From NCBI RefSeq assembly GCF_024521635.1, contig NW_026250430.1, positions 310,001-374,000 of the forward strand: a DNA stretch of 64,000 nt. Reading direction: 5' to 3'. Below, one piece after another: positions 844-47,200 of this stretch; the first letter of the stretch is position 1; each line of letters starts with the position of its first letter. The position numbers and the translations under genes are program-made. Under the pieces are notes generated by a model. That model saw nothing but the letters and a program-made list of their open reading frames with translations, was not told where the DNA came from and made no database searches. This DNA is from Tricharina praecox. Its lineage: Eukaryota.

Positions 844-2200
844 ATGCAGAAATCCAAAGGTTCCGTGGCTCCGGTCAAAGCAGCTCCCAGTTCTGGGCCC
901 CCCATTCCCGCTCGAACCCTCCGAATCCCCAATATCCCACCGTCTGTCACCGAGCAGGATTTCAGGAAGTATTTGGGAGGAATACTTGGATACCCCGACT
1001 TCATGCTCTCGTATGTCCCCGATGAGACCAACATAACAGCCACTATTACTCCCACCAAGGGAGAACCCGCAAGCCTTGCAAGATGCATTCCGGGAAAAGA
1101 GATCGACCTGCCCTACCCCGGTACCAAGCACGGCCTATTGGTTGACTGTGACTTTTTCGGACTGACGCCGCTATACACTGCCAAGGAGCCCACGGTAGAG
1201 TAATGCACACTGTAGCAGCTCGACATGGTGGAAGTTTCCAGAAAGCTAACGGGATTTTTAGCATCGTCGTCGTCACGGGCCTTGCTGGCAACGCATATGG
1301 GTCTTGGGGATCACGCAGCCCACCCCAGATGTGGGTACGGGACTTTTTGCCATCGGATCTACGAGAGCGAGGGTGCCAGGTTAGGATTCTCACCTTTGGC
1401 TACGACACTGCTTTCCGTGATAAGACCATCACCCCCACCGTCCAGATCTTTGGGAGATGGCTTATGGAAAGTCTTAGCCGTCTACGCCCGGAAGGAAATG
1501 TATGTGTTCATGTGTAGAAGTTGTGCTGTCAACTCTGGTTAACATACAACGGCAGGCATCATCACGCCGTCCGATAATCTTCATGGGCCACAGCCTCGGT
1601 GGGTTGGTTATCAAACACGTACGCAATGCTCTTCTCTCCGTGTGTACTCTTCAAGATGCTAATTATCCACAGGCACTCGCGGATGCATCTCGGCCAGAAA
1701 GTCTCAAGAGCGAAAAGGCTATCTTGAGCTCGAGTGTTGGTCTCTTTTTCTTCGGAGTACCTAACCAAGGACTGGATGTTCAAAATTTCAGGACTTTGGT
1801 AGAGGACCAGAAGAACGCAAGATTCATCGAGAGCCTGGCAACAGGCTCAGAATCCTTAAGGGTTATCCATGACTCTTTCGTTCGAGGGGTTAACGTTGAG
1901 CTCAAGGGTTGTCAGATCTTCTCGTTCTACGAAAAAAAAGACACTCAAGCCGTGGTCATCAAACCGGATGGAACTTGGTCGCGAACGGGAAACATGATAC
2001 GACTCGTCACGCCGGAGTCGGCAACCGTCGCGTTTCCCAGCGCGCAAATGCAGCCGCAAATAGGAATCGATGCCGACCATTCGAACATGGTAAAATTCGC
2101 CGGAAAAAACGACCCATCCTACCAAATCGTACTGGCGAAAACAGTGGATTGTGTCAAGAACGCCCAAAAGATAGTCGATGCACGCAAGCGTCATGCATAA
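844..2200 (+). CDS. SesB-like alpha/beta-hydrolase (lipase/esterase fold) with N-terminal RRM-like module; stand-alone NLR-effector-type protein, ~394 aa, 4 exons
   Basis: Exons 844-1199, 1262-1499, 1556-1618 and 1673-2200 are joined by GT-AG introns into one open frame (1185 nt). Motifs DIVVVTGLAGNAYGSW, MWVRDFLP, RPIIFMGHSLGGLVIK (GxSxG nucleophile elbow), FFGVPNQG and IDADHSNMVKF are typical of SesB-like domains. Intron positions match the paralog at 25904-24509. Confidence 0.9.
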
Positions 2201-2820
2201 GGAAGGGAACCATGACGGTGGATTGACTAGTAATTGGTGAACGTGGAATGAGGGAGAGCGAGCTGAGCAGACCGGGATTATGAGGTTATGGGGTTATGAG
2301 GTTATGGGGTTGTGGGGCTGTGGGGTGATGGGTGACAGGTGATGTAGTGGCGAGGATGCGAAAAAGGCGGATTTTTGGAATACTGGACACAGAATGTACG
2401 TAGGGATGAGTAGGAGTAGGTAGTGGTCCGGGCAGCAGGAGGTCGAAGGCGAGCGAGGAATGAGAAGCACAATATTTCCGTCATCCTATCATATTAGTCT
2501 CTCGGTCCATTAGGCTGTTTTCATGCTTTCCTTTGCTTTGAGTTGTCATTGCTTCCGACGCCTTCGCTCAGGTGTCGGAGAGATGTGACCTCGCCTCTGC
2601 TGCTAGTTAGTCTCTTCGTGGTTGCCAGTTTTCTTCGGACGCGATCATGTCTCTTTGCATACTAACTACGGTACATTGTTTACACGTGTCACGGAGAACT
2701 AGAGGGAGCAGTCTACCGGTGTGTTATATACCAATGACGACGACGACGTTAAAACTCTCGTTGCTGTCGAACAGGACTTTACGTACGAGTACATGTTAGA
2801 GTACCGTATGTGTTGAGCAG

Positions 2821-5318
2821 CAACGGGGCTCGCTATACGGCTCGATGGCGTTCCAGCGGATATGTGCATACCTGATAGTCGTGAGTAGCCTCAAGGAAAA
2901 GGCCGCCCGGAGACTCTTGCCACCACCGAACAAGGTGCGAAGTTATGCATAGAACCCCGATACGCTTCGGCTCTCGCAGTGATGACTCCCATGCCTTGCC
3001 GGTAGGAGGGACTACAAGAATATCAGGACGGTTGGTCGGAACATGTCGGCGAAGCTGCCGTAGCAACTTATCCGGTGAGATCTTTGGAATTGAGAATGTA
3101 TGGCATTAGAGCCAAGTTGAATATAGGTACTACATAGTTACTGCCTGTGTTACAGCAGTTGAGCCACCGCCAATCATCGCCAGTCACTGCTGGTCTACGA
3201 CAGATGGTTGCCATAGAGTTATTAGCGCAAATAGGTAATTCTAGGTCGCGAGCAATCAGAGATCAAACAAATGAAGAATGTTGTCCGCCAGCCACTACGG
3301 TATCTTGGATTTCCACCACTTTAGTTGTGTGTGTGGGGGGGTGCCGCAAATACCTGTGTGACCTGGAGCGTTGGCATGTCTGCCGACTACGAGGCTGAGC
3401 ATTCCCCTTTTCCGCGGCGTCGAAGTGCTCTGTCGTTCGCAACGACAGTTCCTCCTTCGACTTCAGCCTTTCTGCGACTCACAACACGAGCGCCGACTTT
3501 CTCGAGTTCGAAGCTCATGCCAAAACAGCCGACACCCCGCCGGAATGCATCTAGACGGAGACGCGGAGCCTCTAGTATGGTCGCACACACGGCTGTACGG
3601 GTCCAAAAGAGCAGTTGGAGAGTGTCAAAGTGTGGTTGGACAGTTGCGCTAGCGGTGACTGGATCATGGTCGTCGATAATTTCGACAACTTTGACAGTCT
3701 TGACGGAGTCGACTGGCGTCCAGCTAGACACCTTCCAGTACAGCGCGGTGCGATCCTATTTACAACATGCAACGCAAATCCCGTCGAAAACCTTGCGTAT
3801 GTGCCACGTGGCGACGCTGGGGTGGAAGTCCACGTGATGAATGACGCGGAAGCATTGAAGATGCTCTCCAATCGCCGAGCCACCGATGGACTTGACGATG
3901 AGGAAGATGCTGTCGAGCTGCTGCAAAGGCTGGAGAAATTGTCCCTGGCAATCGCACAAGCGGTAGCATATATGCGAGAAACCGGAACGGGTATCACGGG
4001 CTATTTGAAGCTATTCAAAGAATGCGAGCGTAATCAGCAGCAGCTCATGAACGAAGCTTTACCAACTGCAATGGAAGACGGCAAAAGACCCGGATCGCGC
4101 GCGGTGATGACGACTTGGATACTCACAATCGACGAAATTCAGGAGAAGAGCCCCAAACCTGTGCAACTACTAGAGGCCATGAGCTTCCTCAACCCGGATG
4201 AAATACCGAAGGCACTATTGAGAGATATCCCTTTCCTTGGGGACGAAAGCGACATAGGATTCAACAAGGCGTTTGCACCGCTCCTCAACTTTTCTCTGAT
4301 CTATCAGCTCGAATCTTCAAATTATCGCTTGCACCGCCTTGTCGGGTTATGTATCCGGCAACAGATGGATCGGAAAGGCGGACGACGGAGACGGGACCTT
4401 TTGGAGGCAGTTTTTGCTTGATAAACGAAACTTTTCCGAACGATAGGCTTGCAAATCACCGTCAGTGTATGCACTTGACAGCACATGCAGCCACCGCACT
4501 GGGGCATGCTACCGATGGATCTCAGGCTACTGTGAACGGTTTGGGTCTACAATACAATTTAGGGATCATCCTGGGCCAAAATGGGAATATCGCAGGCTCC
4601 ATGTGGTTACAGCGGGCACTTAATGGCTATGAGAAGACCCTCGGGAAATATCATATCAGCACTCTCGATGCTGTCTACGGCACGGCCACAACCATTGAGA
4701 AGCGAGGGGATAATATCAAAGCGTATGTGGGGTTACAGCGGGCACTTGACGGCAATGAGGAGATCCTCGGAAAAGACCATCGCGGCACTCTCAATACTGT
4801 CCACGGCATGGCCGTCACTTTTCGTGTGCAAGGGGATTATCACACAGCGTTGGTGTCTTTTCAGCGGGCACTTGACGGCTATGAGACGACCCTCGGAAAG
4901 GACCATCGCGGCACTCTCAATGCTTTCCACGGCATGGCCGTTACTTTCTATTTGCAACGGGAGTATCACAAAGCGTTGGTGTCGTTTTAACGGGCACTTG
5001 ACGGCTATGAGAAGACCCTCGGAAAAGACCATCCCAAAACTCTCGATGCTCTCTACGGCATGGCCATAACGATTTGGGAGCAAGGGGCTTATCACAAAGC
5101 GTTGGTGTCGTTTCAGCGGGCGCTTGACGGCTATGAGAAGACCCTCGGAAAAGACCATCCCAAAACTCTCGATGCTCTCTACGGCATGGCCATAACGATT
5201 TGGGAGCAAGGGGCTTATCACAAAGCGTTAGGACCATCCGAGAACCTTCGCCGCCGCCGAACAAGTTGTGATTTCCCGCATAATCCACGGCTACCAATCG
5301 AGTATTTCAGCAATTTAG
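2821..5318 (+). pseudogene. Decayed NB-ARC-TPR half of a fungal NLR
   Basis: Degenerate Walker-A exon remnant at ~2821-2853 (CAACGG..CTATACGG-CTCGATGGCGTT vs CAACGG..CTATACGGACTCGGAGGAATT in the paralog) and next-exon remnant at ~2896-2935. Recognisable NB-ARC from ~3590 (WIMVVDNFD, GAILFTT, LAIAQAVAY, YRLHRLV). Frameshift at ~4415, premature TAA at 4988 replacing CAG of the repeat, and a deletion at ~5228 that shifts the C-terminal cap (DHPRTFAAAEQVVISRIIHGYQSSISAI*, ending 5318). Confidence 0.85.
4610..5228 (+). repeat. Five 126-bp (42-aa) TPR-coding tandem units, last one truncated
   Basis: Equivalent positions recur at 4610, 4736, 4862, 4988 and 5114; the last two units are almost identical. 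Confidence 0.9.
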
Positions 5319-6759
5319 GTGTGGGTGTATCGATGGATAGAAAGACAGACGATGTTGTGTTGATTTTCATGTTTCTCGTCGGGCCAGAGAGACCCTCTTT
5401 TTTAGACACGCTCGTGCAGTCCAAAACACAACACCCTTACGTACGTAGGAGATATCCACGCCCTTCGACTCCTGAAACGCGCACGGTCCGTCAAAGGTTC
5501 ATGTCATGTCCAACAGATCATACGGGGCCTTCGGGGCCGCGAGCCTTCCGAACGTCTAGCGATGTGCAAGACACTATCATCAACTTGAGTTCAGCCGAAT
5601 CGATCGTCATCGCCATACGAAACGTTGGATGTGTGGCGCGCTACGCTACGCTGCACCCTTCTGCTCTCAGATTCTGTGTTTTCCTTCGTGGCCATTTGCA
5701 CATGCTAGTTTCTTTCCGATACTGTGGCGGCGAGCATCGTTCTCTGGGTGGTGGGTTGTGGATGCGTCTTCATTAGATTGCGGAAGCACGGTGCGGGCGG
5801 AGGATCTTTGATGGGCTTGTGAGTGGATATGTAATCTAGCACGGCAGCGGTGATGCGCGGTGGTGGTCGGAAGAGGGGGGCGGTGCTGCTGTGGCTCGAG
5901 GGTCCGTGTGTCTATTATTAATCAAATGTTGAATCTCTTGGTGTCGAAGCTGTGATTGAATTTCAGTCAGGCGACTAGCCATGTGACCTGCGATCTTCGA
6001 CCTGCGGCTGGTAAGTGTTGGGGACGGGCTCATCCAAGAGAAGAGGCTGAAGTATGGCGAGAGCGTTGGCATGTCGTCTTGAGCACCGAACGATGAGCTT
6101 ATGTACCTATGGCATGGCATGAATTCGAAGTCTGTGCTTTCCATCGAATACACCTCTCTACACTGCCGCCGAGTGATCGTCATCATCGCCTCCATAACAT
6201 TCATTCTTGGCAGGTCCCGGTTGTACCATACATGTACCGAGCAGGGCTATCTATCCGACACATATCATGCCGTACTGGCAGCTGCTCGTTTATGCACAAG
6301 AAAAGCTTTTTTTGTTCCGACGTGGTGGTCCAGTCTGTCGGAGCCCGGAAAATCCGGATCGACAAGTACCGGCAGTCCCTAATACAACCCAGGGTACATA
6401 CTACAGCTTCCCCGCAATTCTGGAAACGCATGTGACGTGGAGTGGATAACGCCGTGTACCGGTACTCAGAACACACAAGATCGTGAGAACGATAGGGCTG
6501 TCCTACATTACGGATACATAGCTTGACTTGGGCACCATGAATCGAACACGAGTCTTCAATCTTCACACTGGCACTTATGCAGGTAGTTATTAGGTCTGAT
6601 CGGTCATGTTTGGGTTGTGGATTCGGCCTTCGGAGCGTGGTCACAAGGAATTTCTCTGAAACTTGGTATCCTAAGCACCGAAGGTGGCTTTCTGTTATAG
6701 CCACAAAGAATCGCAAGAAAGCAAACGAATAAAGAAAGGCGGCCCTCGCAGCAAGCAAT

Positions 6760-12888: not shown

Positions 12889-15800
12889 CTACCTGGGTAA
12901 ACACGCACAACCACAACCCACAGCCGGACACCTCTCCATGCCCTCCTCACGCTCTGCATCCTCGCCGACGAACCAGCCCCTCAGACAGCCCTCGCACCCG
13001 CCATGGCCACAGACACCACACACGGTCCAGCGCCGCTCCTTCCCGAGCTCGCCACAGATTACACACGCCGCGCCTCCGCGGCCCGCACATTTCATGCACC
13101 AGCCACCGCCGCGGCCACCCACGGCGCGCCCGCACTCGCCGCAGCTAAGATCGACGTCGACGTTGAACTGTCCGGACATGCGGACAACCTCGGAGGGCGC
13201 GAGCTTGCGGACGAGAGCTGCGACCGAGAAGTAGCGCATCTGCGTGAGCAGCGAAAGGTAGCCGTCGAGGACTTCTTCAACAATGTGCGCCGAGAACAGC
13301 ATCCGTCGGTGGAGCAGGAGGATTAGTACCGCCGCTGTCTGGACGTCGCCGGTTTCGGTGGAGTACGCGAGGAATTGCTCGACCATGTGCCGTGATGACC
13401 AGGGCTTCTCGTCGTCTGCGGTGGAAACGCTGGTCTGAGTACTGGGGACTGGCATGCGCAGTTGAGGGACAGACTGCGGTTGCTGAGCCGAGTAAGGAGA
13501 GAGGATCGTGGATGCGTTCATTTCCTCGGTGATAGGTGGGAGAGAGTTGTTAGAGATGTTTGGATGGGTGGTATTGGCGTGATTCGGTGACTCCGAGTCT
13601 GACATGTCGCTACGTGTCGATTCGAGGACACCGTAGCTGCTCGATGTCTGCTCACTCACGAGCGAGAACTGCCGCTGCAAGCTTTGTGAGCCGTTGAACG
13701 AAGTATCGGTGTGGGTCGTGGCCGAGTAAGGGTGTGAAGTTGACTGATCGTTTTTGCCGTTGCTCTTGGCGTTGGCGGGGTTGTTGATGTCGACGTGAGC
13801 AGTTCCTTTCTGCGCAGGGCTGTGAACACCGAGAGGGTCGGAGCGCTCAGAGGTCGCAGTGAATAGGGGAAGGTTGTGATTTTCGTCGATAGAGTGGTGG
13901 GCGCTGCCGTTGGCATTGGCCTTTGATTCACCACCGGGCTGCGCTGAAGTGCCCATGTCATGGGCTTTTGTGTGGTTGCTGGCGCCAGTATCAACAGTAA
14001 GGTTTGGTCGAACTTTACTGCTGCTCGGACTGACATTTGGAGCGTCGCTGTCAGGGTGGATTGGAGCCAACGCCGGGACAACTTTCTCAGTCACTGCATA
14101 TTCTTCACCATCGGTGGAGATAGTGGAGCTGGAAGGGCTTCTCCCAAACGCCGAAGGAGGAAGCCGAAGAAGCTGTTCGCCCATCGACTCGTGCTTCGCA
14201 GGTGTTGGTGTAGGAGCACTCGCCGGTGATGGTGGTGCCAATGGTGTGGCGCCTCCAGACGCACTCGCCGAGTTGTCACCGCCGAGACCGAGCGCCCTCC
14301 TCGCGACCAAACCGGTAGGATGCTGGGCCGAGGAAACACTTTCAGCCCGTTGGAATTTCCTTTTTTCAGCTGCTTCCTCGTCCTCCGAAGCGATAATCTT
14401 CTGTATCATCTTCCACGTTGTTGCTGTACGATGATTCTGTGCCCGGAATGCCACCCGCGCGTTCCAATCGCAAGCCTGGAGGAGCGTCATCTTCTTTCCT
14501 CCCGCGACGCCGTCGAGATCGATGATGTATTTTTCCGCGAAATAAACAAACGCCTCTTTATCGAACAGGCTCGGAATCGAGACCCGTGCGGCAGACTGAG
14601 ATGGCATGAATTTATCGAGTGTTGTGTCGAATACGTTGAGCGCATTTAGCGAAGGTCGAGACGACCTGAACGAGCTACTGCGACCATGACTTCGGCGGTC
14701 CTCCCGTAATGTATCCTCGTCGAAGTCGGCTCGCCCCCCAACTGTGTGGAATCGACTCCTTGCCCGCCGCTGTCCCGCAAACGTGAATTCCCCGTCCGGA
14801 GCCCACGATATGGCACTGTGTGTCAGAGAATCGATGGGCTGTGGCGCAGAAGGAACATAGGTCTGGACCAAGGTACAGTCCTTGGCGCAAGACCATAATA
14901 TATCCTCATCCTTCCACAATATCCCCGTAGTCGCATTGTCGTGTACGTCCATGATTCTGGAGGGAATATAGGGCCGCTTGAAGTCCCACAATTGCATCCG
15001 GTGATCATTATTGATGGCACAAGTAGCCAGCTGTGTCGTGTCGTTCTTGTTATTTCGCGATGGTCTCCATGCGATGCGACTCACGGATGCCATCGTAGTG
15101 AGCTCGTGCTTCGGTTTCCGCCGTGGATCAGCATTGAAGTCCCATATCTTTACTGTGCGATCTCTTCCGCCACTTGCGCAGTGCCTTCCGTCGGGATGCC
15201 AGTCGACCGTAAATGCCGGTCCGTTATGCGCATTGATCTTGCGCTCGTATATCGATTCCTTCCTGTAATCCCAACGCTGTTTTGCGTGTCAGCTCACACA
15301 CGTCACGCCGGAACTGGCCATATCCGGGTCACCAACCTGTATGGCACCACTATCGAAAGCGGCTGCAAACTCGGTAGCATTCGCAGCATTAAACTGGACA
15401 TCCCTCACAGCGTCCGACTTCCCCACAAATGTAAATCTGCTCTTGTTCTCCCTGAGGTCCCACAACTTGATGGTCCCATCCTGGCTCGCGCTGAGCAGCA
15501 GATTTCCATTCGCCTGGTTGAACGCTAGCCGATGGACCTGCCGAACATGTTCCCTGAGCATGCGATCCAGCTTCCCCTGCTTGACATCGTATAGACAGAT
15601 AGTGCCGTTTGTCCCCGCCGTCGCAATGATGTTCTTCTGGTGGATCGTCCCCCACTTGACGTCATACTGGAAATGTCGTTTTTGTTCGCCGGGGAGTCGG
15701 AGGTTCGCCTCTTCGGTGATCTCGTTGGTGCCGACGCGGAGGACGCGTAGGATCTCGCGACCGGCTACTACGATGCGGTCTTCGTCGTTGGTGGAGAGCG

Positions 15801-16170
15801 CTAGGATCGCCGAGCCGAGGTTGTAGCGTAGGTTGCGGGGTACCGTAAGGTTCCTGGGGGACGGGATGTTAGTATCCGCTTCCCCGCTTCCCCGCGCCGG
15901 TGATGGCGGCGAGGTCTGCGCGGGGGGAAGGGATGGGAAGGGGGGGGAGACGTACGGAGCATTCGTCACACTCGTGGGGCCACTACCACCGCCCGCGCCC
16001 GTAAGCCCGCTGTTGTTCCCCGAGGAGCTAGGCGGGCGACTGGTGCCGACGAAGGGCTGGGTGAGTCGAGCGAAGACGGCGCGACGTGACTGGTGCTGCT
16101 GCTGCGGGGGTTGGCTCGAGTTGGCGGACAGCAGAGCGTGTTCGTACTGCGCGTAGTGGCTGTCGGCCAT
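12889..16170 (-). CDS. RTC1: SEACAT/GATOR2 subunit Sea2/Rtc1 (WDR24 ortholog), ~1073 aa, 2 exons
   Basis: One 60-nt intron (15336-15277) joins the two ORFs. N-terminal WD40 repeats (EHVRQVHRLAFN..LLLSASQDGTIKLWDLR, AHNGPAFTVDWHPDG, WDFKRPYIP), CDWNARVA and GDVQTA motifs, and a C-terminal Zn-finger/RING ending CPAVGCGCAC. Confidence 0.9.
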
Positions 16171-16946
16171 CGGGGATTGTCATTCGAAGGATGAGGGCGT
16201 GGATATGGCTTGTCGGCGGAGGCGGAGAGCTTCCATAGATTCCCTATGTACGTAAGCTGCGGCGGCGGCGCGGCGGGGGCGTTTTTCTGGCTGATCGTGG
16301 TGGATGCGCTTTTTTAATTTTTAACGGGGGATTGGGCTGTTACTATCGGTAGTCGATGACACTAGCGAATGGGACCTACCTATGGGTGCGATAGCTAATC
16401 GGTGTGCTTCCTGTTGGCGGTGATGATTGCCGAATGAGCCCTGATGAAGGGTAGGGCAGATAACGGAGCGATAGATGGAGTGAGGCTGAAGATCATCACC
16501 ATGGGACGGTCGGAGCGATCGTTGTCTGTGGGAGGCCGCGGCCCGCGGGTACTATCGACCAGATTAGCGATGATCGATATGATATGATCGATTGATTGAT
16601 AACCAAAGCATCCGACGTTGCACGGGAGCGTTATGGTGACACAGCACCGCACAGCAAAACAAAAACCTGTGCAGCTGGCAGCAAACAAAAGTAAACGGAT
16701 CGCATACTGCAGAGAAGGTGCAGGTCCGCCATCAAATATCTGCATAGTACGATGAATATAGGTGTCTAGATCGATCTTGAAATTGCCACACTATAATTGA
16801 CGAATCGAAGAGAAAGAGGAGGGTATTTTAGGTACAAAGTATGAAGCTTGAGTGTGAAATGAGTTTCCTCCGATCCGCACCGAAAAATAATCAAGCGACG
16901 AAGACACAACCAGATCTGTCGTGCACAAGCAGACCGAGCCAAGAAG

Positions 16947-20542: not shown

Positions 20543-23500
20543 CTACACTACGCTCGATTGCTGGCCGGCGAGAAGTCGGCGGGCATTCGCAACATCGCTG
20601 GCGGCGTTGAGAGCATTAAGGTGGTATTCTCCATATAACTTCTCATAGTCATCAAGTGCCCGCCGGTACAACGTCAAGGCCTTATCCAGATCCCCTTGCT
20701 GCTGAAAACAGAGGGCCATGTTGTGAACCGTGCCGAGAGTGTCAGGGTGGCCTTCACCGAAGATCTTCTCATAGCCATCAAGCGCCCGCCGGTACAACGT
20801 CAAGGCCTTATCCAGATCCCCTTGCTGCTGAAAACAGATGGCCATGTTGTGAACCGTGCCGAGAGTGTCAGGGTGGCCTTCACCGAAGATCTTCTCACAG
20901 CCATCAAGCGCCCGCTGGTTCCACGTCAAGGCCTTATCCAGATCCCCTTGCTCCTGAAAACAGAGGGCCATGTTGTGAACCGTGCGGAGAGTGTCAGGGT
21001 GGCCTTCACCGAAGATCTTCTCACGACCATCAAGTGCCCGCTGGTTCCACGTCAAGGCCTTATCCAGATCCCCTTGCTGCTGAAAACAGAGGGCCATGTT
21101 GTGAACCGTGCCGAGAGTGTCAGGGTGGCCTTCACCGAAGATCTTCTCATAGCCATCAAGCGCCCGCCGGTACAACGTCAAGGCCTTATCCAGATCCCCT
21201 TGCTGCTGAAAACAGAGGGCCATGCTGTGAACCGTGCGGAGAGTGTCAGGGTGGCCTTCACCGAAGATCTTCTCACGACCATCAAGTGCCCGCTGGTTCC
21301 ACGTCAAGGCCTTATCCAGATCCCCTTGCTCCTGAAAACAGACGGCCATGCTGTGAACCGTGCGGAGAGTGTCAGGGTGGCCTTCACCGAAGATCTTCTC
21401 ACGACCATCAAGCGCCCGCTGGTTCCACGTCAAGGCCTTATCCAGATCCCCTTGCTGCCGAAAACAGACGGCCATGCTGTGAACCGTGCGGAGAGTGTCA
21501 GGGTGGCCTTCACCGAAGATCTTCTCACGACCATCAAGCGCCCGCTGGTTCCACGTCAAGGCCTTATCCAGATCCCCTTGCTGCCGAAAACAGACGGCCA
21601 TGCTGTGAACCGTGTGGAGAGTGTCAGGGTGGCCTTCACCGAAGATCTTCTCATAGCCATCAAGCGCCCGCTGGTTCCACGTCAAGGCCTTATCCAGATC
21701 CCCTTGCTCCTGAAAACAGAGGGCCATGCTGTGAACCGTGCGGAGAGTGTCAGGGTGGCCTTCACCGAAGATCTTCTCACGACCATCAAGTGCCCGCTGG
21801 TTCCACGTCAAGGCCTTATCCAGATCCCCTTGCTCCTGAAAACAGACGGCCATGCTGTTAACCGTGCGGAGAGTGTCAGGGTGGCCTTCACCGAAGATCT
21901 TCTCACGACCATCAAGTGCCCGCTGGTTCCACGTCAAGGCCTTATCCAGATCCCCTTGCTCCTGAAAACAGACGGCCATGCTGTGAACCGTGCGGAGACT
22001 GTCAGGGTGGCCTTCACCGAAGATCTTCTCACAGCCATCAAGTGCCCGCTGGTTCCACGTCAAGGCCTTATCCAGATCCCCTTGCTGCTGAAAACAGAGG
22101 GCCATGTTGTGAACCGTGCCGAGAGTGTCAGGGTGGCCTTCACCGAAGATCTTCTCATAGCCATCAAGCGCCCGCCGGTACAACGTCAAGGCCTTATCCA
22201 GATCCCCTTGCTGCTGAAAACAGATGGCCATGTTGTGAACCGTGCCGAGAGTGTCAGGGTGGCCTTCACCGAAGATCTTCTCACAGCCATCAAGCGCCCG
22301 CTGGTTCCACGTCAAGGCCTTATCCAGATCCCCTTGCTGCTGAAAACAGAGGGCCATGTTGTGAACCGTGCCGAGAGTGTCAGGGTGGCCTTCACCGAAG
22401 ATCTTCTCATAGCCATCAAGCGCCCGCCGGTACAACGTCAAGGCCTTATCCAGATCCCCTTGCTGCTGAAAACAGAGGGCCATGTTGTGAACCGTGCCGA
22501 GAGTGTCAGGGTGGCCTTCACCGAAGATCTTCTCATAGCCATCAAGTGCCCGCCGGTACCACTGCATAGCACCTGCGCCATCCTTGTTATTTTGCAGAAC
22601 CCTTCCCAACTGTTCCTGTAGTCGTAGACCAGAACGCATATGGTGGTAATCATTCGGGGTGTGCCCCAGTGCGGTGACTGCATGCGCCGCTAGGCGCATA
22701 CATTGGCGGTGATTCGCAAGGCGGTCGACTGGGAAACTATCATCTAACAAACTCAAAACTGTCTCCAAAACGGTTTTTCTTCGTTGCGTGTCTTCCGAGT
22801 CCATCTGCGTCCGGACCCAGAACCCAACGAGACGGTGTAAGCGATAATCCGAAGATTCGAGTTTATAGAGTAGGGAAAAGCTAAGAAGTGGTGCAATGGT
22901 TTTCTTGAATAGTACTGGGCTTTTATTGTCAAGGAACGGGACATGTTCCAAGATGGCTTTTGGTATCTCATCCGGGCTGAGGAAGCTCATGACTTCAAGC
23001 AGCTGCACAGCGGCAGGGTTGTCGCGCTGGATTTCGTCGATGGTGAGTTTCCACGTCGTCATCACCGCGCGTGAGCCGTGTCTGTCGCCGTCTTCGGTTG
23101 AAACTGGCAAAGCTGCGCTCATGAGCTCCTGTTGGTTGCGCTCGCATTCTTTGAACATCTTCAAGTAATCTGGAATTTCCGTCTCGGTTTCTCGTATATA
23201 TGCTGCTGCCTGTGCTATTGCTAACGGCAGTTTGTCCAGCAGATTCAACAGCTCGAGAACATCTAGCGTGTGGATCGGAACGGTGACGTCACTGGCCAAA
23301 AGCTTTGAGAACATCTCTGCTGCGTCGGAGTCGCCCATTTCGTGGATGCCCACGCCAGCGCTGGGCGGCACATATGCAGGGTTTCCGACGAGTCTTCGAT
23401 CGCGTGTTGTAAACAAGATGGCACCGCGCTTTACCGGAAGGTATTTCGCCACGTACAAGTCGACCTCATCGAAATTGTCGATGATCAAATTCCAGTCACC

Positions 23501-25904
23501 GCTAGCAGGACTGTCCAACCATTTCTTGACACCCTTTAGCTGCCCCTCCTCGTCCATGCCACCGTTACCCAGGAGACCGGCTTCGCTTCCCAGTTCCAGG
23601 TAACTGCTGTTGAAGCTTTCATGCGAGTTGCCATGTATCCAGAAGGCGTGGGTCCGTGGCCGCGCTTTCTTCGTTCGGTGACACAGTTCGACGGCAATGG
23701 CTGTTTTCCTAAACCGAGTCAAATCATCCTTAGTGACGTACTGGAACGTTGGAGGGACTGCCAGCTAGCGAACACAGACGTTACGTGAAGCCCGATTAAG
23801 GAAGTTGCACGTCACTGAACCTTAGCCGAATTGGCCAGGGCAGGCACTGGACGTCTGTGTTCGCTGGACACCTGACGGCTCGATGAAGAGTCTTACCCAA
23901 TTCCTCCGAGTCCGTATAGAGCGGCTCGCCGTTGGCTGTCACCCCCGGGGCTTACTAGCAACGTCTCGAGTTGGCGAAATTTCTCCTCGCGTCCGACAAA
24001 AACCGGATTTTGATAGGTAGGTACCATGAATAAAGGCTCTATATCCGAGTTGGAAACTAGAATATTTCATCAGCACACCGCAATATACAACACGTGGACT
24101 ACTCCGACTCGGGTTCTCCAAAACAACACCCGAAAAATGACATCCCGTCCAACAAAAGACCAGCAAAGCCAAGAGACCTGCAGAGGGAACGTTGCCGTAC
24201 CGGCGGCGGATGTACGCGGCTCGGCTTCTCACATCAACCCGGACTCACCGGGTTGTATGGGCGGGCTCGGGTGCGGGGTCGGAAACCAAAAAATGAACCG
24301 AAGAAAAAACGAAAAGCACGTAACACCCCCCAAGAGCCCGGGGGAGAGGTGCGACGGAAGAATTGATAAACCCCCGCTCAGTGCATATTTCCATCCCCGC
24401 CTTCTGTCGCTTATAATCCTGTCCTCCCTCGCTCCATTTTGCTCGTCGACCTTCCTCGCCCCGCCTCCACCAGAACAGTCCGCAGTCGGGCCAGAACATA
24501 GCACCAGACTACACACCTTCATGTTTTGTCCCTGCTACCCCACCGGCTTCAGTGATGCGCGGTGCGTTCTTGACACACTCTGACAGTCTATCCCTTACTG
24601 TCGTGTAGTCACTATCGGTGGGGTCGGTGAATTTTACCATGTTGGAGTGGTCGGCATTGATCCCCAGTTGCATATGGATGGACTCAGTGGGAAGAGAGTA
24701 GGTTGCCGATTCCCGTGTCACTACCCGTATCATCTCACCACTTCTTGACCAGCTCCCGTCGCGGATGACGACAGATTGAGTGTCTCGGAGTTCGAAAAAC
24801 GATGTGATCCGGCACTTTTGCAGTTCGACTCCGTGCAAGAAACGTTGATGGGATTGTCTCAAGAGCTCCGAGTCGACTCGTAGGTCGTTGATGAAGTATT
24901 CGTTCTTCTGGTCCTTCACCAAAGTCCTCAAATTCTCGATATTGAGTCCTCGGTTGGGGACGCCGAAGAAAAAGAGAGCAGCACATGAGCCTAGGAGAGC
25001 TTGATCCTTTTCGAACTTGTCGTTTTGATGGGATGCATCCGCGAGTGCCTTCGGATAATCAGAATCAATAGTGCCATGAGAAGCGCAACGCTGCCTACCT
25101 GTTTGATGACTAACCCACCGAGGCTATGGCCGATAAAGATGATCGGACGATGCACTTCCTGCATTATCTGTTAACCGAAGCTCGCAACAAATATATCTAC
25201 TGCATACATTCTCGCCTTGACGTTCGCTGCTCAGACTGTCGAAGAGCGATCTCGCAAAGACTTGGATGGAAGGCGAAAACGCGTCGTCGTTGAGAGCCGA
25301 GCCATAGCCAAAGGTGAGAACCCTCACTTTATAGCCTTGGCCTTCCAGATCCCGTGGCAAGAAGTCCCTCAACCACATCCGGGGCCGATTGCGCGACTTC
25401 CACGATCCATACGCATGACCAGCAAGGCCTGTAACGGCGACAATGCTACAAGTTCGGTTAGCTTTCAGTCGGAATCACCACACGCACGGAGGGGGAGCAC
25501 TACTCCACTGTCGGCTCGTCCGCACTGTATAATGGGGTTATACCGAGAAAGTCGCAGTCCACGACCAGTTCGACTCCAGTTTCCCGGTAGCACTTGTAGA
25601 CTTTTTTGCACGGAGCGCATCCCAGAAGAGCTGCGGGATCTGGTTCCTCCGTCGTGGGAGTAACAGTCGCCACCGCATAGTGCTTCGAACGGACTAGCGA
25701 GAATATGAAACCATCGTATCCGAGTAGTTCTTTCAGATAGGCCCCGAACTCCTCCTTCGTGGCACATAGCGGGATACCGGAAATCCGGAGCGTACGAGGT
25801 CGCGTCTGTGGCCGCGACACAGGTTCCGCCGGTTGTGTGGTGGTACTGGCGTAGGGAGGCCTCCGGGATGCCCGGAGTCGGCGGGGTTGCGGCTCTCTTG
25901 GCAT
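20543..25904 (-). CDS. Fungal NLR: RRM-like + SesB-like hydrolase / NB-ARC / 15 TPR, ~1518 aa, 6 exons
   Basis: Exons 25904-25504, 25445-25208, 25158-25099, 25048-24517, 24056-23897 and 23708-20543 total 4557 nt in one open frame. Motifs GHSLGG and INADHSNMVKF (hydrolase); NPVFVGRE; Walker A YGLGGIG|KT split by an intron; Walker B WNLIIDNFD; LPLAIAQAAAYI; YRLHRLV; then 42-aa TPRs. The exon 4-5 junction (460-nt phase-1 intron) is inferred. Confidence 0.85.
20669..22558 (-). repeat. 15 near-identical 126-bp TPR-coding tandem units
   Basis: Unit consensus xxRALDGxEKIFGEGHPDTLxTVHxMAxCFxxQGDLDKALTx; 15 x 126 = 1890 bp exactly. Confidence 0.97.
23767..23865. repeat. Perfect 15-bp inverted repeat (69-nt spacer) inside the Walker-A intron of the NLR
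   Basis: AGCGAACACAGACGT (23767-23781) and ACGTCTGTGTTCGCT (23851-23865). Confidence 0.85.
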
Positions 25905-27336
25905 AGGAGGTTTTGGGACCGAAAGAGAAATCGTGGCTAGGAACGATAGAGCGAAATCTCCTTCGGTGGATTCGAATCGTGAAAGAGGGGTCATTCTCAG
26001 CCTCACAGTCCGCTCAGCATATGTGCCAACGCACTGCGAGGAGCGCTTGGTGTACCAGTAGGTAACAAGGGTATTCGCGACAGCTCATCCGATTCGTTCG
26101 GACACGCCTCTGACGCGCAACAGGATTGGCCGACTCGGCCGTGCAGGAAAGTAGATACATACAGACTAGAAAACTGACCGCGCTCAAAGTCGTTGCGTGC
26201 GTTGAATTATGCGCAGCCTCAATACCCAGGTACCTATCGAGAGACCCTCGATGGGTACGAGCAAATGAAGAATGTGAATCAATTGAAGAACAAGAAAAGA
26301 GGTCTATGGCATTTTGGGAATATCGGTGTGTTGATGTCTGATTATTGATGTGTTGAACAAGAGACCGACGGATGAGACGAGCAGAAAAGCAACAACAGCC
26401 TCTCTCCAGCACTCAACGATGACGTCAAGCCGCCTCTGCCCCCGTGCCCCTCACTACTCTACTCTAGAGTATTGTACATATCTACATGATATCTACATAT
26501 CTCGCTTCGTTCCCACGTGGCGGTGGAGGTAGAGTACATGTGGCTAAACCCGAACGCCACAATCCGTGTGGCAAGTAAGTGAACCAGATACCTATGTATG
26601 CTTGTTTTCTGTTATGCCCAAGGGAAAGAAGCCTCCCCATTTCTCTAATTAATAGTGGTCTTGGGGTGTGTTTAAATACCTGTGAGGTACTGGACTCCAG
26701 TTTCGGTTTTGCCAGGAAATTCAATTCGTTGCTCGGGCACCGGATTTCGCGAAACTTCGGTTTCTGTATACGTGAAAAAACCAAGGTGCATTCTTGTTCT
26801 CGCCCCAGACTAAGTGGTTGCTCTCAAAGCATGAAGCTCCATGTGGGTTTGCCGTGGAATGGAGGTGGGTTGCTTCTATTGGTTTGAGGAATGCTATTTC
26901 ACTAGGTACTTATTGGTGGCTTCATCGTGTAAGCAGAGGAGCAATATCCCGTCATCTCCGCAGGATCACGGTGCTTGATGAAGAGCCGGAAGATCGTGGA
27001 ACAGAGTGGCTACACTTCGGGGAGCCGTCCTTGGTGACAAGGACCGAAACGCCGCTGTCATCGCCGCCTACCTATCCGGCCCCGACAGGAAAGATGGCCG
27101 GGAAAGATGTACTTGGAGAAGCTACATACCTATTCCATCAGGATTCAGGAGTAGGAATCAAAATCTTAAACAGCTGGTGCCGCTCATTCACGCCTCGAGA
27201 GTTGACCGAATACATTTTATTAATATTAACAGGGCCAACACATTATATAAAAATAGCCCACAATCTCCACCACCATCCATCACTTACCCCCACAACTTCC
27301 CTCCCCCCCTTCCTCCCCTTTCTCCGTAATCCAAGC

Positions 27337-43011: not shown

Positions 43012-44262
43012 TTACTCCTGGCTCTCGGGCTCCTCAATGTCGCCGACGCAGATGGGCTTCTCGCACATGCTGGCGAGGCGGAACATATGTCGCTCCTTCT
43101 CGTAGACGCCATCGTAGTCGACAGTGGCGGTATCTGGATTTTGCATCAGCTTTCTATCCCCTACTCCTTCCTCTAGCGGGAATGAAAACTCACGGCAAGT
43201 GCTCCTATTATCGAACATGACGACGGTCCTTGGCTTCCACTGGAGACGGACCTGGAAGTCGTGGCCGCGCGAGATGTGGTCCATGAGGTACTTGAGCAGC
43301 CACTCGGTCTCGCTCTGCTTCCAGCCCTGGATGCCGGTGATCCACTCGTCGTTGACGAACAGCGACTTCTCGCCCGTCACCGGATGCACCCGCACGATCG
43401 GGTGCAGCGACTTGACCGGGTCCTTGCGGCACAGTCCGCCGTTGTTGCGCGCGAAGTCGCAGATCCGCTGCGATGAGTGTGTTGCCTTCAGGCCGTCGAG
43501 CATCTCGCGGAAGCCGGGGGAGAGGCGTCTAGACGGGGTGTTAGTGAAAAGTAAAGGTAATGGGGAGGGGGGAATGTACTTGTAAGCCTCGGTCATGCTA
43601 GCAACGACGGTATCGCCTCCGACCTCTGGGCACTGCAGCATGCACAGGAGGACGTAACCCGGAGGCTGGCGCTCGTAGGAGACGTCGTGGTGCCAGATGT
43701 TCGCGGTCGACTTCTGCTCGAAGAAGCGCTCAATCTCGGCCTGGTTGCCGTCGCGGTAGATGATGTGGAACCCGGGGTAGCCGGGGATGGCGCCGGTGAC
43801 GGGCTGGTAGTGGCGCTTGCCGAAGTAGTCGCTGAAGTTCTGCTGCGCCTCGGGGCCGATGTCGGCAAAGTCCTGGTCGCGGAGGACCACCACCTTGCGC
43901 TCGCTGATGAGCAGCGCGAGCTCGTCGCGCTGCTGCGATGTGAGCGTGGAGAGCTGTACGCCTTGCAGCTCAGTGCCCATCTTGGGCGAGATGTCGGTTG
44001 CCGTCACCGAGGGTGTCAGAAGCGCCCGCTTCTTGGGGTCCGCCCGCAGCGCGGGGTCGTCGTATGTGAACGGCTGGATCGGTGGGAAGGACACTTCCTC
44101 CCATGCCGGAAGGTACTCCGGGTATGGCGTTGCCGGCTGCTTGGTAAAGTTGCCCGACTTCTTGTAGGGGACGTTGATGTCGTAGACTTCTCCATCGTCA
44201 CTGGCTACCGAGGAGGCGGAGGACGAGAGGGGAGGGGACGGGGGAGACACATGGGGAGCCAT
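43012..44262 (-). CDS. TauD/TfdA-family Fe(II)/2-oxoglutarate dioxygenase (sulfonate dioxygenase, Jlp1-like), 3 exons
   Basis: WHHDVSYERQPPG (HxD), GGDT, HPIVRVHPVTGEKSLFVN, FDNRST..H; two in-frame introns are read through in the ORF track; start at MAPHVSPP. Confidence 0.93.
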   Translation of the reverse strand: MAPHVSPPSPPLSSSASSVASDDGEVYDINVPYKKSGNFTKQPATPYPEYLPAWEEVSFPPIQPFTYDDPALRADPKKRALLTPSVTATDISPKMGTELQGVQLSTLTSQQRDELALLISERKVVVLRDQDFADIGPEAQQNFSDYFGKRHYQPVTGAIPGYPGFHIIYRDGNQAEIERFFEQKSTANIWHHDVSYERQPPGYVLLCMLQCPEVGGDTVVASMTEAYKYIPPSPLPLLFTNTPSRRLSPGFREMLDGLKATHSSQRICDFARNNGGLCRKDPVKSLHPIVRVHPVTGEKSLFVNDEWITGIQGWKQSETEWLLKYLMDHISRGHDFQVRLQWKPRTVVMFDNRSTCREFSFPLEEGVGDRKLMQNPDTATVDYDGVYEKERHMFRLASMCEKPICVGDIEEPESQE

Positions 44263-47200
44263 TGTGAATTGTGGAAGAGGATTGGACTGTGATCGAGGGA
44301 TTAGGATTGGGATTGGGATTGGGGGATTGAGGTCTGGTCTGGATACTGCAGGCTGTATTCGCTGATGTTGAAGATGTTGATGTTGATGGGGTGAGATAGT
44401 AGCTTCCAACCAGGAGGAGATGGTGGGTATAAATACTCGAATCTCGAGCTGAGCTTTGGGGGAGCCATGTACTATACAATACAAACAGCGTAGTGGGTGG
44501 GGTGGTAGGGATTTGGGATTGGGGAGTCTGGCCCGCCTCGGAAGCCCGCAACCGCAAACACGATAGAGTACTCTACTCTACTCTACTGTACTCTGTCGCA
44601 GCGAGAGAGACATCGCGCGTGCCTAGTTAGTTAGTAGTGGGTATAGTTGTCGTCATTGACATGTACCTCGTCTGCTGGCGAACTTCGCAACCGCTTCTGC
44701 TGAACCGGGGGTGGGTTGTGCGTGGCCAGGGCTCTCTGCTCGGTCTTGCAAACCACCCACCTTACCACCACGCGCTGCAGGCAAAGGCATTAATGCTGCA
44801 GCATCAGCTCCTGCGCCTGCGATTGGGCATAAAATCGGACCCGACGCCTTGGTTCCGGTAGGTTGCCATCAAGGGAAGGAAGGAAAATATTTACTTAGTA
44901 CAGTAAGTACCGTACTTGGTACTCACCACACAGCCAGGAGAGAAAGGGAAAAAAAAGGAAGAAAAAAAAGGAAAAGTCCCGCCCCAGCTACTGCAATCCG
45001 GTCAGTTCTACAGCAGCAAGGCCAGCTGTTGGAGGGTGGAGTGAAACACAAGGTGAGAGGCAGCTTCACGCACGGACGAACCACTACTACATCCTACCAC
45101 TAACCACTACTACATCCTACCACTAACCACTACTACTACTGCTACTAACTACTACTGACAGCTCCACCGTTCGTCCAGTCAGGAACAAGTATGTACGTAC
45201 ATACATGGGCACCGCGATAAGTATCAATGTTTCTATTGCTGCCCGCGTTTCGTCTGGGAGTGAGACTGAGTGGGGGAAAAGCGGGGCATCGTGAGATGAA
45301 AGCCTGAAAGGTCGACACGGCACATATCCTATCCTATCCTCCTTACACATACACACGCATAGGTACGGTAGGTATCCTATCATCCCCACACCCACCCACA
45401 CATCCACAACGAATCGACACCGGCACCGAAACGACACATACGCAATCAATCCCCACACGGAGTCCGATCCGCGGCGGCAACAATGATCTTGATATGCGAG
45501 CCTGCACGCCGCACGCAGCAACGTCAGACAGCCGGGTGTTGGATACGAGAGGAAACAAAAACAGCCGCGCTGGGTATCAATTGGCTGGCCCGAGAGCTAG
45601 TTTTCCACTGCTACTACCAAGAGTTCTCACATTCTCACAAACTCACATACTTTGCCTTAGCTACCCAGTTTGAGCAGTCCGGTGAGCGCTGCATACCGAC
45701 CGACCGACTGAGCTCTACATCCGTGCCTAGCTAGAGTAGAGTAGAGTAGAGTTCGACCCACGGCACATGAATCCATCCATCCATCCATCATCGCAAGGCT
45801 TTAGATTTGCGGTGTAGAGTACATGTACGCCCGAGTGGAAGCAGTAGGTAGGTACTGGGTAGGTACTAGGCGTGTAGGTAGATCTTTGTCGATTGCACCG
45901 TACTCCCGAACCAGAGACAGAGGCAAGAACAGCAGCTACATACCTGAATGCCTACGGAACCTACGGAGTTAACCACACACCGGTAGGGAATGGCGATCCG
46001 ATTCCGATTACACCGACCGCAAGACCGAGGTCGAGTCGAGGCGAGGCGGCAGTGTCGAGATAGTAGTTAGTTGGCAGAGTCAAGACTCAAGACAGCAATT
46101 GGGCGGGGCGGGGCGGGGGAAACGAGGTAGAGTAACAATTGCTTATTGTTTCGGATCTACGTTTCGAGCATTCGCCTTATGGATAGGATTATTAGATAGA
46201 CGCGAAGCAGCTCGCCGGGCGGATCCATGCTAGCTACTAATTAGTAGCATAGCTGGGGCTTCTTTCTCCCCTCGATCCACGCTAGCTACTCCCCTCCCTG
46301 AGTCCCCTCCCCCCACGTCCGTGGGTATCCATCCAGGAACATCACCAATGCCGGTTCAGCTATTGTACTAACCAGTACGAGACAACCAACTATGGCGTAT
46401 GAAACTTCTGCGTCGCCGTCGGAGGAGGAGGCACGACGACAGCCAGAGAGGCAGACAGGCGCCGCCCCAGTGCCGCAGTGCGTGCCCCACGTCCCAGGCA
46501 GGAGCGGACGAACGAGCGAACGGACGAACACGACACCAACGCCTAACTAGAGTCTATGTAGGATTCGTGTCGTGTCGTCCGTCCCCGCCTCCGTAGAGTA
46601 CCTCCCTCCCCACCTTAGCTACCGTACTCTACGTCTCAGTCAAGTCAAGTCAAGTCAAGTCCAAGTCCCCTCAACTCCGGTCCGGCCACTGGCCAGTTGT
46701 TTGCTCGCGAGAGGCCGAGAAAAAAACTAAAAAACCAAAAAAGAAAAGAAAAGAAAAGAAAAAAAGCGCGCATCCGTAACCGGAAAGGCGCGCGCGCGCG
46801 GGCTGGCTGGCTGGCTGGCTGGCAAACAAACGTCAGTGACGAAGAGGAAGATCAAGCGCGATCCCCCCGCTCCATCCCCGGAACGTACGGACGGAGGCGG
46901 GGACAGTGGGAGTGACAGCTCGCTCTGCCTCCGACGTCCCCGTGCAGTCCAGTGCAGTCCAGTCCAGTGCACGATGAATATTTTTGTGCTGTTGTTGCGG
47001 TCGTCGTTTAGTTTTTTCGTCTCTAGGGCTGCGGCGGTGATTGGCGGGAGAGAGAGCGTCGGAGACTCGGAGTCGCTTGCTGCTGGCCAAACACATTGAC
47101 TTCGAGTTTCGAGTTACGTTTCCCCGCCAGTTCGGTGGCAGCCCGCACGCAGCCCGCAGCCCAGAAATCTCTTACCACTGACTTCCCACGCGCGCGCGCA

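Follow-up and report, generated by a model that had tools for sequence, protein, structure and literature searches.

A stretch of 64,000 nucleotides from Tricharina praecox (contig NW_026250430.1, positions 310,001 to 374,000; called the window below) carries on its minus strand a gene for a NOD-like receptor (NLR; NOD, nucleotide-binding oligomerization domain), made up of six exons and five GT..AG introns of 58, 49, 50, 460 and 188 nt. The fourth of these (junction intron 4, 24057..24516, minus strand; 460 nt, GT..AG, phase 1) is located exactly between the part encoding an alpha/beta-hydrolase (lipase-like) domain and the NB-ARC-like/TPR part. With the intron removed, the coding sequence comprises 4557 nt, corresponding to 1518 aa plus a stop codon; when the intron is read through, the frame continues as GGT GTG TAG and is closed by the TAG at 24509..24511 (minus strand, read 24511-24509; donor positions +6..+8), giving a hydrolase-only product of 412 aa. 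Both spliced and intron-retaining RNA were found at this intron. The first-pass annotation of the window had proposed, from the letters alone, one gene with potentially two products, and its exon and intron coordinates, the CAT GAA G end of the hydrolase exon, the stop and both protein lengths were all reproduced from the sequence.

Spliced and intron-retaining RNA at the hydrolase/NOD junction

RNA evidence was drawn from the two sequencing runs that matched the locus best (X1 and X2, from two studies with two organism codes, and not recorded as RNA). X1 was identical to the window in its letters, and X2 showed 8 substitutions and a one-base insertion relative to it in 2.75 kb. Contigs from both runs were joined on the minus strand, with GT..AG ends, at 25445|25504, 25157|25207, 24056|24517 and 23707|23896, and since four introns were crossed in this way, both runs contain spliced, cDNA-derived sequence. 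The spliced joint of intron 4 (24056|24517) had a depth of 127 in X1 and 107.3 in X2, while a retained contig (24029-24546, 518/519 nt), containing the entire intron together with 28-30 letters of each flanking exon, had a depth of 165.4 and 77.3, respectively, with no other letters in X1. Two RNA forms exist, and the share of the retained form is comparable to that of the spliced form. The two arms summed to 292 in X1, against 285.1 for the upstream and 263.4 for the downstream exons, and to 185 in X2, against 218.8 and 181.4; the depth at the intron 5 joint (23707|23896) was 263.4 and 181.4, respectively. A single gene with intron 4 spliced, as had been predicted, is borne out by the joint in both runs, and instead of the one transcript form that the first-pass annotation had named as the outcome speaking against it, spliced and intron-retaining RNA coexist in X1 and X2.

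Introns 1 and 2 had zero cover in both runs, the bin depths being equal to the exon depth times the exonic share, and intron 5 (188 nt) was covered at a depth of 50.5 in X1 and 0 in X2. At intron 3, loose ends at 25050 and 25098 read into the opposite exon; this intron and the uncovered part at 26068-26150 (both runs) were left out of the evidence. All three parts of the NLR lie on one transcript in both runs, as seen from the joints 24517|24056 and 23896|23707, the shorter side of the first joint being 28 letters. The contigs, which are blind to 3' ends, had no loose ends inside intron 4. Next to none of the words of the locus were present in three soil metatranscriptome runs. In the region of 24517-24974 (minus strand), X2 additionally contained contigs with 90-95% similarity. 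A 135-nt skip with non-canonical ends (24746|24882; GA..GT) was also seen in this run, as were long loose ends at 24687 and at 23896-23934.

The gene model, all on the minus strand, starts with exon 1 (25504..25904; start ATG at 25904, RNA contig 25504-26001), which codes for an N-terminal beta-alpha-beta subdomain and the first part of the hydrolase, and is followed by intron 1 (25446..25503; 58 nt, phase 2, GTAGTG..TAG), joined at 25445|25504 in X1 and X2. Exon 2 (25208..25445) was taken from the gene model and the RNA contigs; intron 2 (25159..25207; 49 nt, phase 0) was joined at 25157|25207 in X1 and X2, with the cut displaced by +1. Exon 3 (25099..25158) contains the nucleophile elbow GHSLGG, and intron 3 (25049..25098; 50 nt, phase 0) was placed by the gene model, with no RNA joint listed for it. 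Exon 4 (24517..25048), whose homologues are 39-68% identical, encodes the C-terminal half of the hydrolase with the ADHS histidine and the final helix, and its last letters are CAT GAA G. Intron 4 begins with GTGTGTAG (donor) and ends with GTGCTGATGAAATATTCTAG, with a branch-like CTGAT 15 nt ahead of the TAG acceptor. Exon 5 (23897..24056) encodes a linker, the conserved FMVP..FVGRE motif (its ATG at 24027) and the first half of the P-loop (GLGGIG); intron 5 (23709..23896; 188 nt, phase 2; joint 23707|23896, cut +1) lies within the Walker A codons. Exon 6 (20543..23708, stop codon 20545-20543) encodes the remaining NOD (KT of Walker A, LIIDNFD, ILFTTRD, KLPLAI and DUF7779) and the TPR array (20639..22562; 15.3 copies of a 126-nt unit, 95% matches). 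An alternative in-frame ATG at 25994, 30 codons 5' of 25904, is covered by the RNA contig beginning at 26001, so that the products may be 442 and 1548 aa; the N-terminus would then read MTPLSRF..., adding 30 aa to both.

An immediate in-frame stop is common in this gene: introns 1, 4 and 5 (three of the five) stop within 1-2 codons on read-through, intron 1 after one codon, and by itself, within the gene, such a stop is not beyond chance. The other introns had been described as ~50-65 nt long, which is true of three of the four (58, 49 and 50 nt) and fails for the 188-nt intron. Intron 4 is longer than the NB-ARC-type junction introns of all 12 relatives with which it was compared (60-240 nt; 13 introns in all), and its GTGTGT donor is rare, occurring in 2 of 24 distinct family donors. 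Of the T-rich, 3'UTR-like tracts (UTR, untranslated region) reported for it, one T-rich stretch (~24323-24287) was recovered, but no AATAAA/ATTAAA-type hexamer and no run of five or more A is present in the intron. Its sequence has no similarity to 80 related loci or elsewhere in the window, its predicted RNA fold does not surpass that of shuffled sequences (z -0.01), and its two minus-strand frames matched no Pfam family. A search of Rfam with 23600-24700 (E <= 1) gave no match, and thus no known intron-hosted RNA there. A stop-free antisense frame of 188 aa (24017-24583, plus strand) extends over all of intron 4. Pfam gave no match for it, and the 1-nt insertion of X2 (at 24287) falls inside it, on which grounds it was ruled out as a conserved coding gene; the low T content of that strand probably accounts for the frame.

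Domains of the receptor and its fused and stand-alone relatives

Searched singly, the hydrolase exons matched no Pfam family, and full-length relatives gave weak Abhydrolase_6/DUF676 matches, of which one (P0007, DUF676, 24.3 bits) was above the cut-off. The hallmarks of an alpha/beta-hydrolase are present within the N-terminal 410 residues (GHSLGG in exon 3, ADHS in exon 4), and in alignment A2 H355 was invariant and S211 nearly invariant. An AlphaFold2 (AF2) model of the paralogue P0005, which is 46-54% identical to the hydrolase of the window gene, has an alpha/beta-hydrolase fold (pLDDT 87.8, pTM 0.89), with a small beta-alpha-beta subdomain first and a long terminal helix last, at the junction. 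Compared with PDB folds, the model was closest to lipases, thioesterases and a phospholipase (E about 1e-7); when PDB sequences were searched with a profile, weak matches appeared at the nucleophile elbow (best E 0.016). As modelled, the N-terminal domain fits the sesB-like lipase/esterase class as it is outlined in the available part of Dyrka et al. 2014 (PMC4986451). Judged by the P0005 model, which ends in a helix, and by stand-alone relatives, which end at the same place, the 412-aa frame is a complete hydrolase. The conserved subdomain before the hydrolase (~90 aa; 25504-25800, minus strand; P0005 residues 26-112; consensus T.RIS.IP...T and VATVTF) is not in Pfam, and its model resembles an RRM/ferredoxin-like fold.

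The motifs of the NOD, which we take to be Walker A (GLGGIG|KT), LIIDNFD, ILFTTRD and KLPLAI of this domain type, can be seen as letters in the spliced translation. Residues 1-336 of exon 6 matched DUF7779 alone (E 6.9e-11), and PF00931 was not matched at E <= 0.01; the nearest NOD homologues (P0158 and P0161, 56-58% identity) have precomputed PF00931 matches, and because these homologues carry the family while a profile match of its own is lacking, the NOD is called NB-ARC-type by homology. The C-terminal repeats matched TPR_12 (E 4.1e-219) and TPR_10 (E 2.8e-143); the array is of the highly internally conserved repeat type of fungal NLRs, which is prone to unequal recombination and to assembly error. 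In the protein collection, from which the window NLR itself is absent, the best matches reached 68% identity to its hydrolase exon and 60% to its NOD. The phase-2 intron splitting Walker A was kept in the NB-ARC-type loci L004, L015, L017, L023, L032, L055 and L058, and its read-through gives an immediate stop in relatives as well (GG|GTAAG).

Hydrolases of this type had been said to occur both alone and fused to NLRs, and both states were found among the relatives, with one of each within the window. Fused proteins with the hydrolase-NB-ARC-TPR order (P0001, P0002 and P0004) and with a NACHT domain (P0003), as well as stand-alone hydrolases of 370-464 aa (P0005-P0009), all came from ascomycetes, either Pyronemataceae or others. 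The domain end is followed by at most 45 aa in 56 of 156 representatives and by at least 300 aa in 49; 24 are intermediate and 27 are fragments. P0006 ends in ...GCM, which is the read-through translation of a GTATGTAR donor. Ends of this kind, in CM, GM or SM right behind the hydrolase, were noted in P0006, P0020, P0036, P0058 and P0060; as they match donor read-through, some stand-alone models are probably truncated NLR gene models.

Within the window, positions 844-2197 (plus strand) encode P0005 (listed at NCBI for Tricharina praecox; 99-100% identity in exons 1 and 2), a 394-aa stand-alone hydrolase that ends in RHA* at 2198-2200 and has no donor there. It is followed 3' by an NB-ARC-TPR remnant (~2600-5800, plus strand) with a destroyed P-loop and a broken frame, so that fused and split states are found 20 kb apart. 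In the remnant, PVFFGRD (at 2625) and KTLVAVE (at 2751) can still be recognised, the P-loop glycines are replaced (...NDDDDV), and there are in-frame stops and a frame change at ~4412-4418; from their sequence, the G-to-D changes look like mutation of the RIP (repeat-induced point mutation) type. P0164 from Sphaerosporella brunnea (991 aa) has a NOD that is 50% identical to that of the window gene, but its LFLVPF is immediately preceded by an N-terminus of another kind, which is short (...NEFSRSIIHGNVIIGAS...), making it a candidate for an N-terminal swap within the same NB-ARC clade. Other neighbours in the window are two WD40-repeat frames (12889-16179, minus strand) with a single in-frame stop between them (15289-15291), and a TauD-family dioxygenase frame (43015-44577, minus strand; E 9e-46).

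The phase-1 junction intron and the donor-proximal stop in the family

A metagenome scan gave relatives in 149 of 314 candidate stretches, from which the best 80 loci were kept and grouped into 55 clusters at >=97% nucleotide identity. In 32 clusters a NOD was found within 2.5 kb behind the interrupted hydrolase frame (12 NB-ARC, 20 NACHT), and one (L073) had a continuous frame. The remaining 22 had no NOD match; 9 of these had less than 1.5 kb of downstream sequence, and the other 13 look, by sequence, like stand-alone hydrolases or hydrolases with other domains. With the window gene included, 30 of 33 inferred junction introns were in phase 1, with NB-ARC and NACHT partners alike, and the three exceptions were weakly inferred. 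The FMVP..FVGR(E/D) motif is conserved directly behind the acceptor, as is the P-loop intron. No NB-ARC start without a preceding hydrolase was found in the related loci.

Five apparent junction introns of 889-1013 nt at NACHT loci were rejected, since each gap holds an open frame of 174-311 aa; their donors were kept and their lengths dropped. The extra frame, ~900-1000 nt behind the hydrolase (174 aa in L066; 265-311 aa in L042, L047, L057 and L072), shares LWISGP..., IIIDGLD and ALLTS motifs that are conserved among these five loci, and by its sequence looks like a second, degenerate NACHT-like module before the canonical NACHT. The gaps of L050/L052 (481/483 nt) and L024 (240 nt) are unsure, as the NOD match starts late, and the acceptors inferred for L030, L042, L047, L059 and L072 give a stop at the joint codon, so acceptor positions in the NACHT loci are approximate.

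On the tree of hydrolase exons the NOD class changes at least three times, for example between the sister pair L047 (NACHT) and L024 (NB-ARC), and a single clade of NACHT-partner hydrolases, a group defined after inspection of the tree, was rejected by the approximately unbiased (AU) test (p 0.0009). The idea that a modular intron eases domain swapping thereby receives indirect support from sequence comparison, through a phase-1 intron shared by NB-ARC and NACHT joints (30/33) and through these class changes (>=3).

Donors were also scanned for on their own at the domain end, with scoring limited to +3..+6. This gave 24 strong donors, 22 of them in phase 1, and TAA, TAG or TGA stood at +6..+8 in 15 of these 22 (16 of 23 with the window gene). 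Counted as distinct 16-mers, 16 of 24 junction donors had the stop, compared with 9 of 54 internal introns of the same genes (Fisher 3.5e-5) and with 15.4% of 1256 donor-like hexamers; among donors with T at +6 the numbers were 16 of 24 and 9 of 32 controls (p 0.006). Position +7 was A in 18 of the 24 (0.82 bit versus 0.02 in controls), and +9..+12 were nearly random. The stop state was not clustered on the hydrolase-exon tree (8 changes versus a mean of 8.6 in shuffles; 207 of 500 shuffles as low), so the excess is not explained by shared descent alone. A donor-proximal stop had been expected to be conserved in relatives; it is enriched (16 of 24 distinct donors), but strict conservation is absent. 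The enrichment suggests that selection may see the translation of unspliced RNA.

Possible explanations: receptor dosage, effector release or splicing noise

The reading to which we give an even chance is that intron 4, being long and having a weak donor, is removed inefficiently and that its retention throttles the output of the receptor, while the stop would give a clean hydrolase frame. The boundary between effector domain and NOD would carry an old phase-1 intron, which in this gene may have grown to 460 nt with the weak GTGTGT donor. Retention would follow from slow recognition of such an intron and would act mainly as a throttle on the amount of full-length receptor, and the donor-proximal stop may limit translation of the retained RNA to a clean, complete hydrolase with no junk tail. 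The junction intron would also be a likely joint for recombining the hydrolase module with different NOD classes.

Several points weigh against this reading. The retained RNA would have a ~4-kb 3'UTR and a further intron, and should therefore be a substrate of nonsense-mediated mRNA decay (NMD); a plant parallel for NMD of retained RNA is given in the available part of PMC8116057. In the clade of the window gene, a stop is found in four members (the window gene, L002, L010 and L013) and is missing in seven (L004, L008, L011, L017, L003, L009 and L015). The purine at +8 after TA at +6/+7 (15 of 18, controls 7 of 13) is not significantly enriched (p 0.11); a purine at this position runs counter to the U1-pairing preference. 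Both forms are known from assembled RNA contigs, which are blind to 3' ends and translation. The contigs are unstranded, and both arms reach 28-30 letters into the exons, less than the 31-letter bridging rule of the tool, so that the retained molecules are seen as local contigs, not at full length. Contig depth is a rough mean word depth, a poor measure according to the tool, and the library type is unrecorded. The depth of the 3' part of exon 4 (415.8/291.1) exceeds both flanks and falls outside the two-form model; a related transcript probably shares part of this exon. The splice sites of the relatives were inferred by simple scoring from DNA, and the AU-test group, as noted, was chosen with the tree in view.

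Retention or intronic polyadenylation could also serve as a regulated switch, by which a free and functional hydrolase effector is released alongside the integrated receptor or in its place; we regard this as rather unlikely. Such a switch would agree with the two RNA forms of similar depth in two runs, with a 412-aa frame equal to natural stand-alone hydrolases, with a stop enrichment across the family that tree clustering does not explain, with the stand-alone paralogue P0005 and its decayed NOD partner inside the window, and with the functional use of intron-retention isoforms by plant NLRs, as far as PMC8116057 was available. However, the intron has neither AATAAA nor ATTAAA, the arm depths sum (roughly) to the downstream exon depth and would allow for few RNAs that end in the intron, retained RNA lacking proximal polyadenylation should be NMD-prone, and the closest relatives often have no immediate stop. 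Splicing noise, in which removal is slow, the retained form has no role and stands for pre-mRNA in the nucleus or for a substrate of NMD, and the stops are a general NMD safeguard, is likewise doubtful. The rare donor (2 of 24), a length of 460 nt that is the longest in its class, the partial cover of the 188-nt intron in X1 and the immediate stops of three of the five introns would all suit it, as would Yarrowia, where intron boundaries almost always turn retention into a premature stop and loss of UPF1/UPF2 raises unspliced RNA (PMC2911113, available in part). Yet in X2 the 188-nt intron was uncovered while the 460-nt intron stood at 77.3 versus 107.3 for the spliced joint, far beyond a pre-mRNA background, and an NMD safeguard works with any in-frame stop, whereas the bias for A at +7 and a purine at +8 was not found in control introns.

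We consider it very unlikely that the intron cover derives from another transcript, either an antisense RNA or a separate NB-ARC-TPR gene with a promoter within the 'intron' and its start at the FMVP ATG (24027). The contigs are unstranded and reach fewer than 31 letters into the exons, a 188-aa antisense frame is open (24017-24583), the FMVP methionine is conserved directly behind the acceptor, and the annotated start of T. praecox P0161 lies 12 aa before FMVP; but the spliced joint occurs in both runs, the relatives P0002, P0004, P0158 and P0159 are annotated as fused with the same joint, the antisense frame has the X2 insertion at 24287 and no Pfam match, the retained contig extends 30 letters into exon 4, 5' of the donor, and the intron contains, ahead of 24027, six ATGs that are out of frame or lead to a dead end. 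Carry-over of genomic DNA in the RNA libraries is extremely improbable: that the runs are RNA is a guess, but DNA would cover all introns alike, and introns 1 and 2 were uncovered in both runs and intron 5 in X2. With these introns bare, neither DNA carry-over nor a general pre-mRNA background accounts for the depth at intron 4.

There is a precedent in the Pezizales for NLR-like genes that are alternatively spliced: the nank genes of Tuber reportedly (2012; cited in PMC4986451 and PMC13449251) have microexons, and alternative splicing is said to diversify their repeat (sensor) end. The window gene shares alternative splicing with them, and here a single intron between effector and NOD is kept or removed. 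Teng et al. are said to have described, in 2023, brown-algal NB-ARC-TPR genes in which single TPR exons are shuffled (discussed in PMC12258605 and PMC13449251); introns at module borders are proposed to ease NLR reshuffling in both cases, but the TPR array of the window gene is one exon, and its border intron separates effector from NOD.

In its architecture, the gene does not stand out from an established class of fungal NLRs, and it comes closest to the sesB-like/NB-ARC/TPR NLRs, for example Podospora anserina Pa_2_10340 (Dyrka et al. 2014, PMC4986451). As these are described in the available part of that paper, a predicted lipase/esterase N-terminus, a NOD of NB-ARC type (in the window gene by homology) and highly similar TPR repeats are common to both. 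N-terminal domains are swapped between fungal NODs (PMC4986451), and the sesB-like domain is paired with all nucleotide-binding (NB) classes (PMC12258605; both available in part). The main text of PMC4986451 never uses the word 'intron', the available part of PMC12258605 mentions introns only for gene-model repair, and the phase-1 junction intron, retention and donor-proximal stop that set the window family apart from described sesB-like NLRs are not described in these texts. In plants, TIR-type NLRs (TNLs; RPS4, RPP4 and others) have intron-retention and premature-termination isoforms whose balance matters for immunity (PMC8116057, part). The likeness is that retention brings an early stop and the truncated RNA of an NLR gene encodes the N-terminal domain only; the differences are a fungus, a lipase-like hydrolase instead of TIR, and plant function and proximal polyadenylation that are experimental, compared with RNA forms only in the present case. 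In Yarrowia lipolytica, retention nearly always leads to a premature stop that arises from the GTAAGT/GTGAGT consensus in phase 2 (PMC2911113, part), unlike the stop at +6..+8 of phase-1 introns described here, which lies outside the core consensus and is enriched at the hydrolase/NOD junction only. A literature search, with supplements outside its reach, gave no report of intron retention in fungal NLRs and no description of a junction intron in the context of fungal NACHT exon shuffling. The family pattern, a phase-1 junction intron with stop enrichment, is new and testable, and any annotated Pezizales genome would allow the enrichment to be checked across all its introns.

A practical problem of annotation is also explained: gene callers can take the read-through stop for the end of a 'stand-alone hydrolase', as in the example of P0006. 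A more far-reaching and unlikely proposal is a dual-purpose joint, at which a lipase would have recombined repeatedly onto NB-ARC and NACHT domains while a selected stop at +6..+8 lets regulated retention free the lipase; if true, fungi would have an equivalent of the TIR-only isoforms known from plant NLRs, with the free lipase acting as an effector, a primer or a decoy. Fungal NLRs are numerous, little is known of the control of their dosage and activation, and a mechanism at the DNA level for swapping their N-termini is not stated in the literature searched. A phase-1 junction intron common to NB-ARC and NACHT partners would offer a physical route for the known domain shuffling, through recombination in the intron, and an abundant retained-intron form at the exact border of effector and NOD is a concrete and readily testable candidate control point, at which either the dose of the receptor or the release of a free effector may be set.

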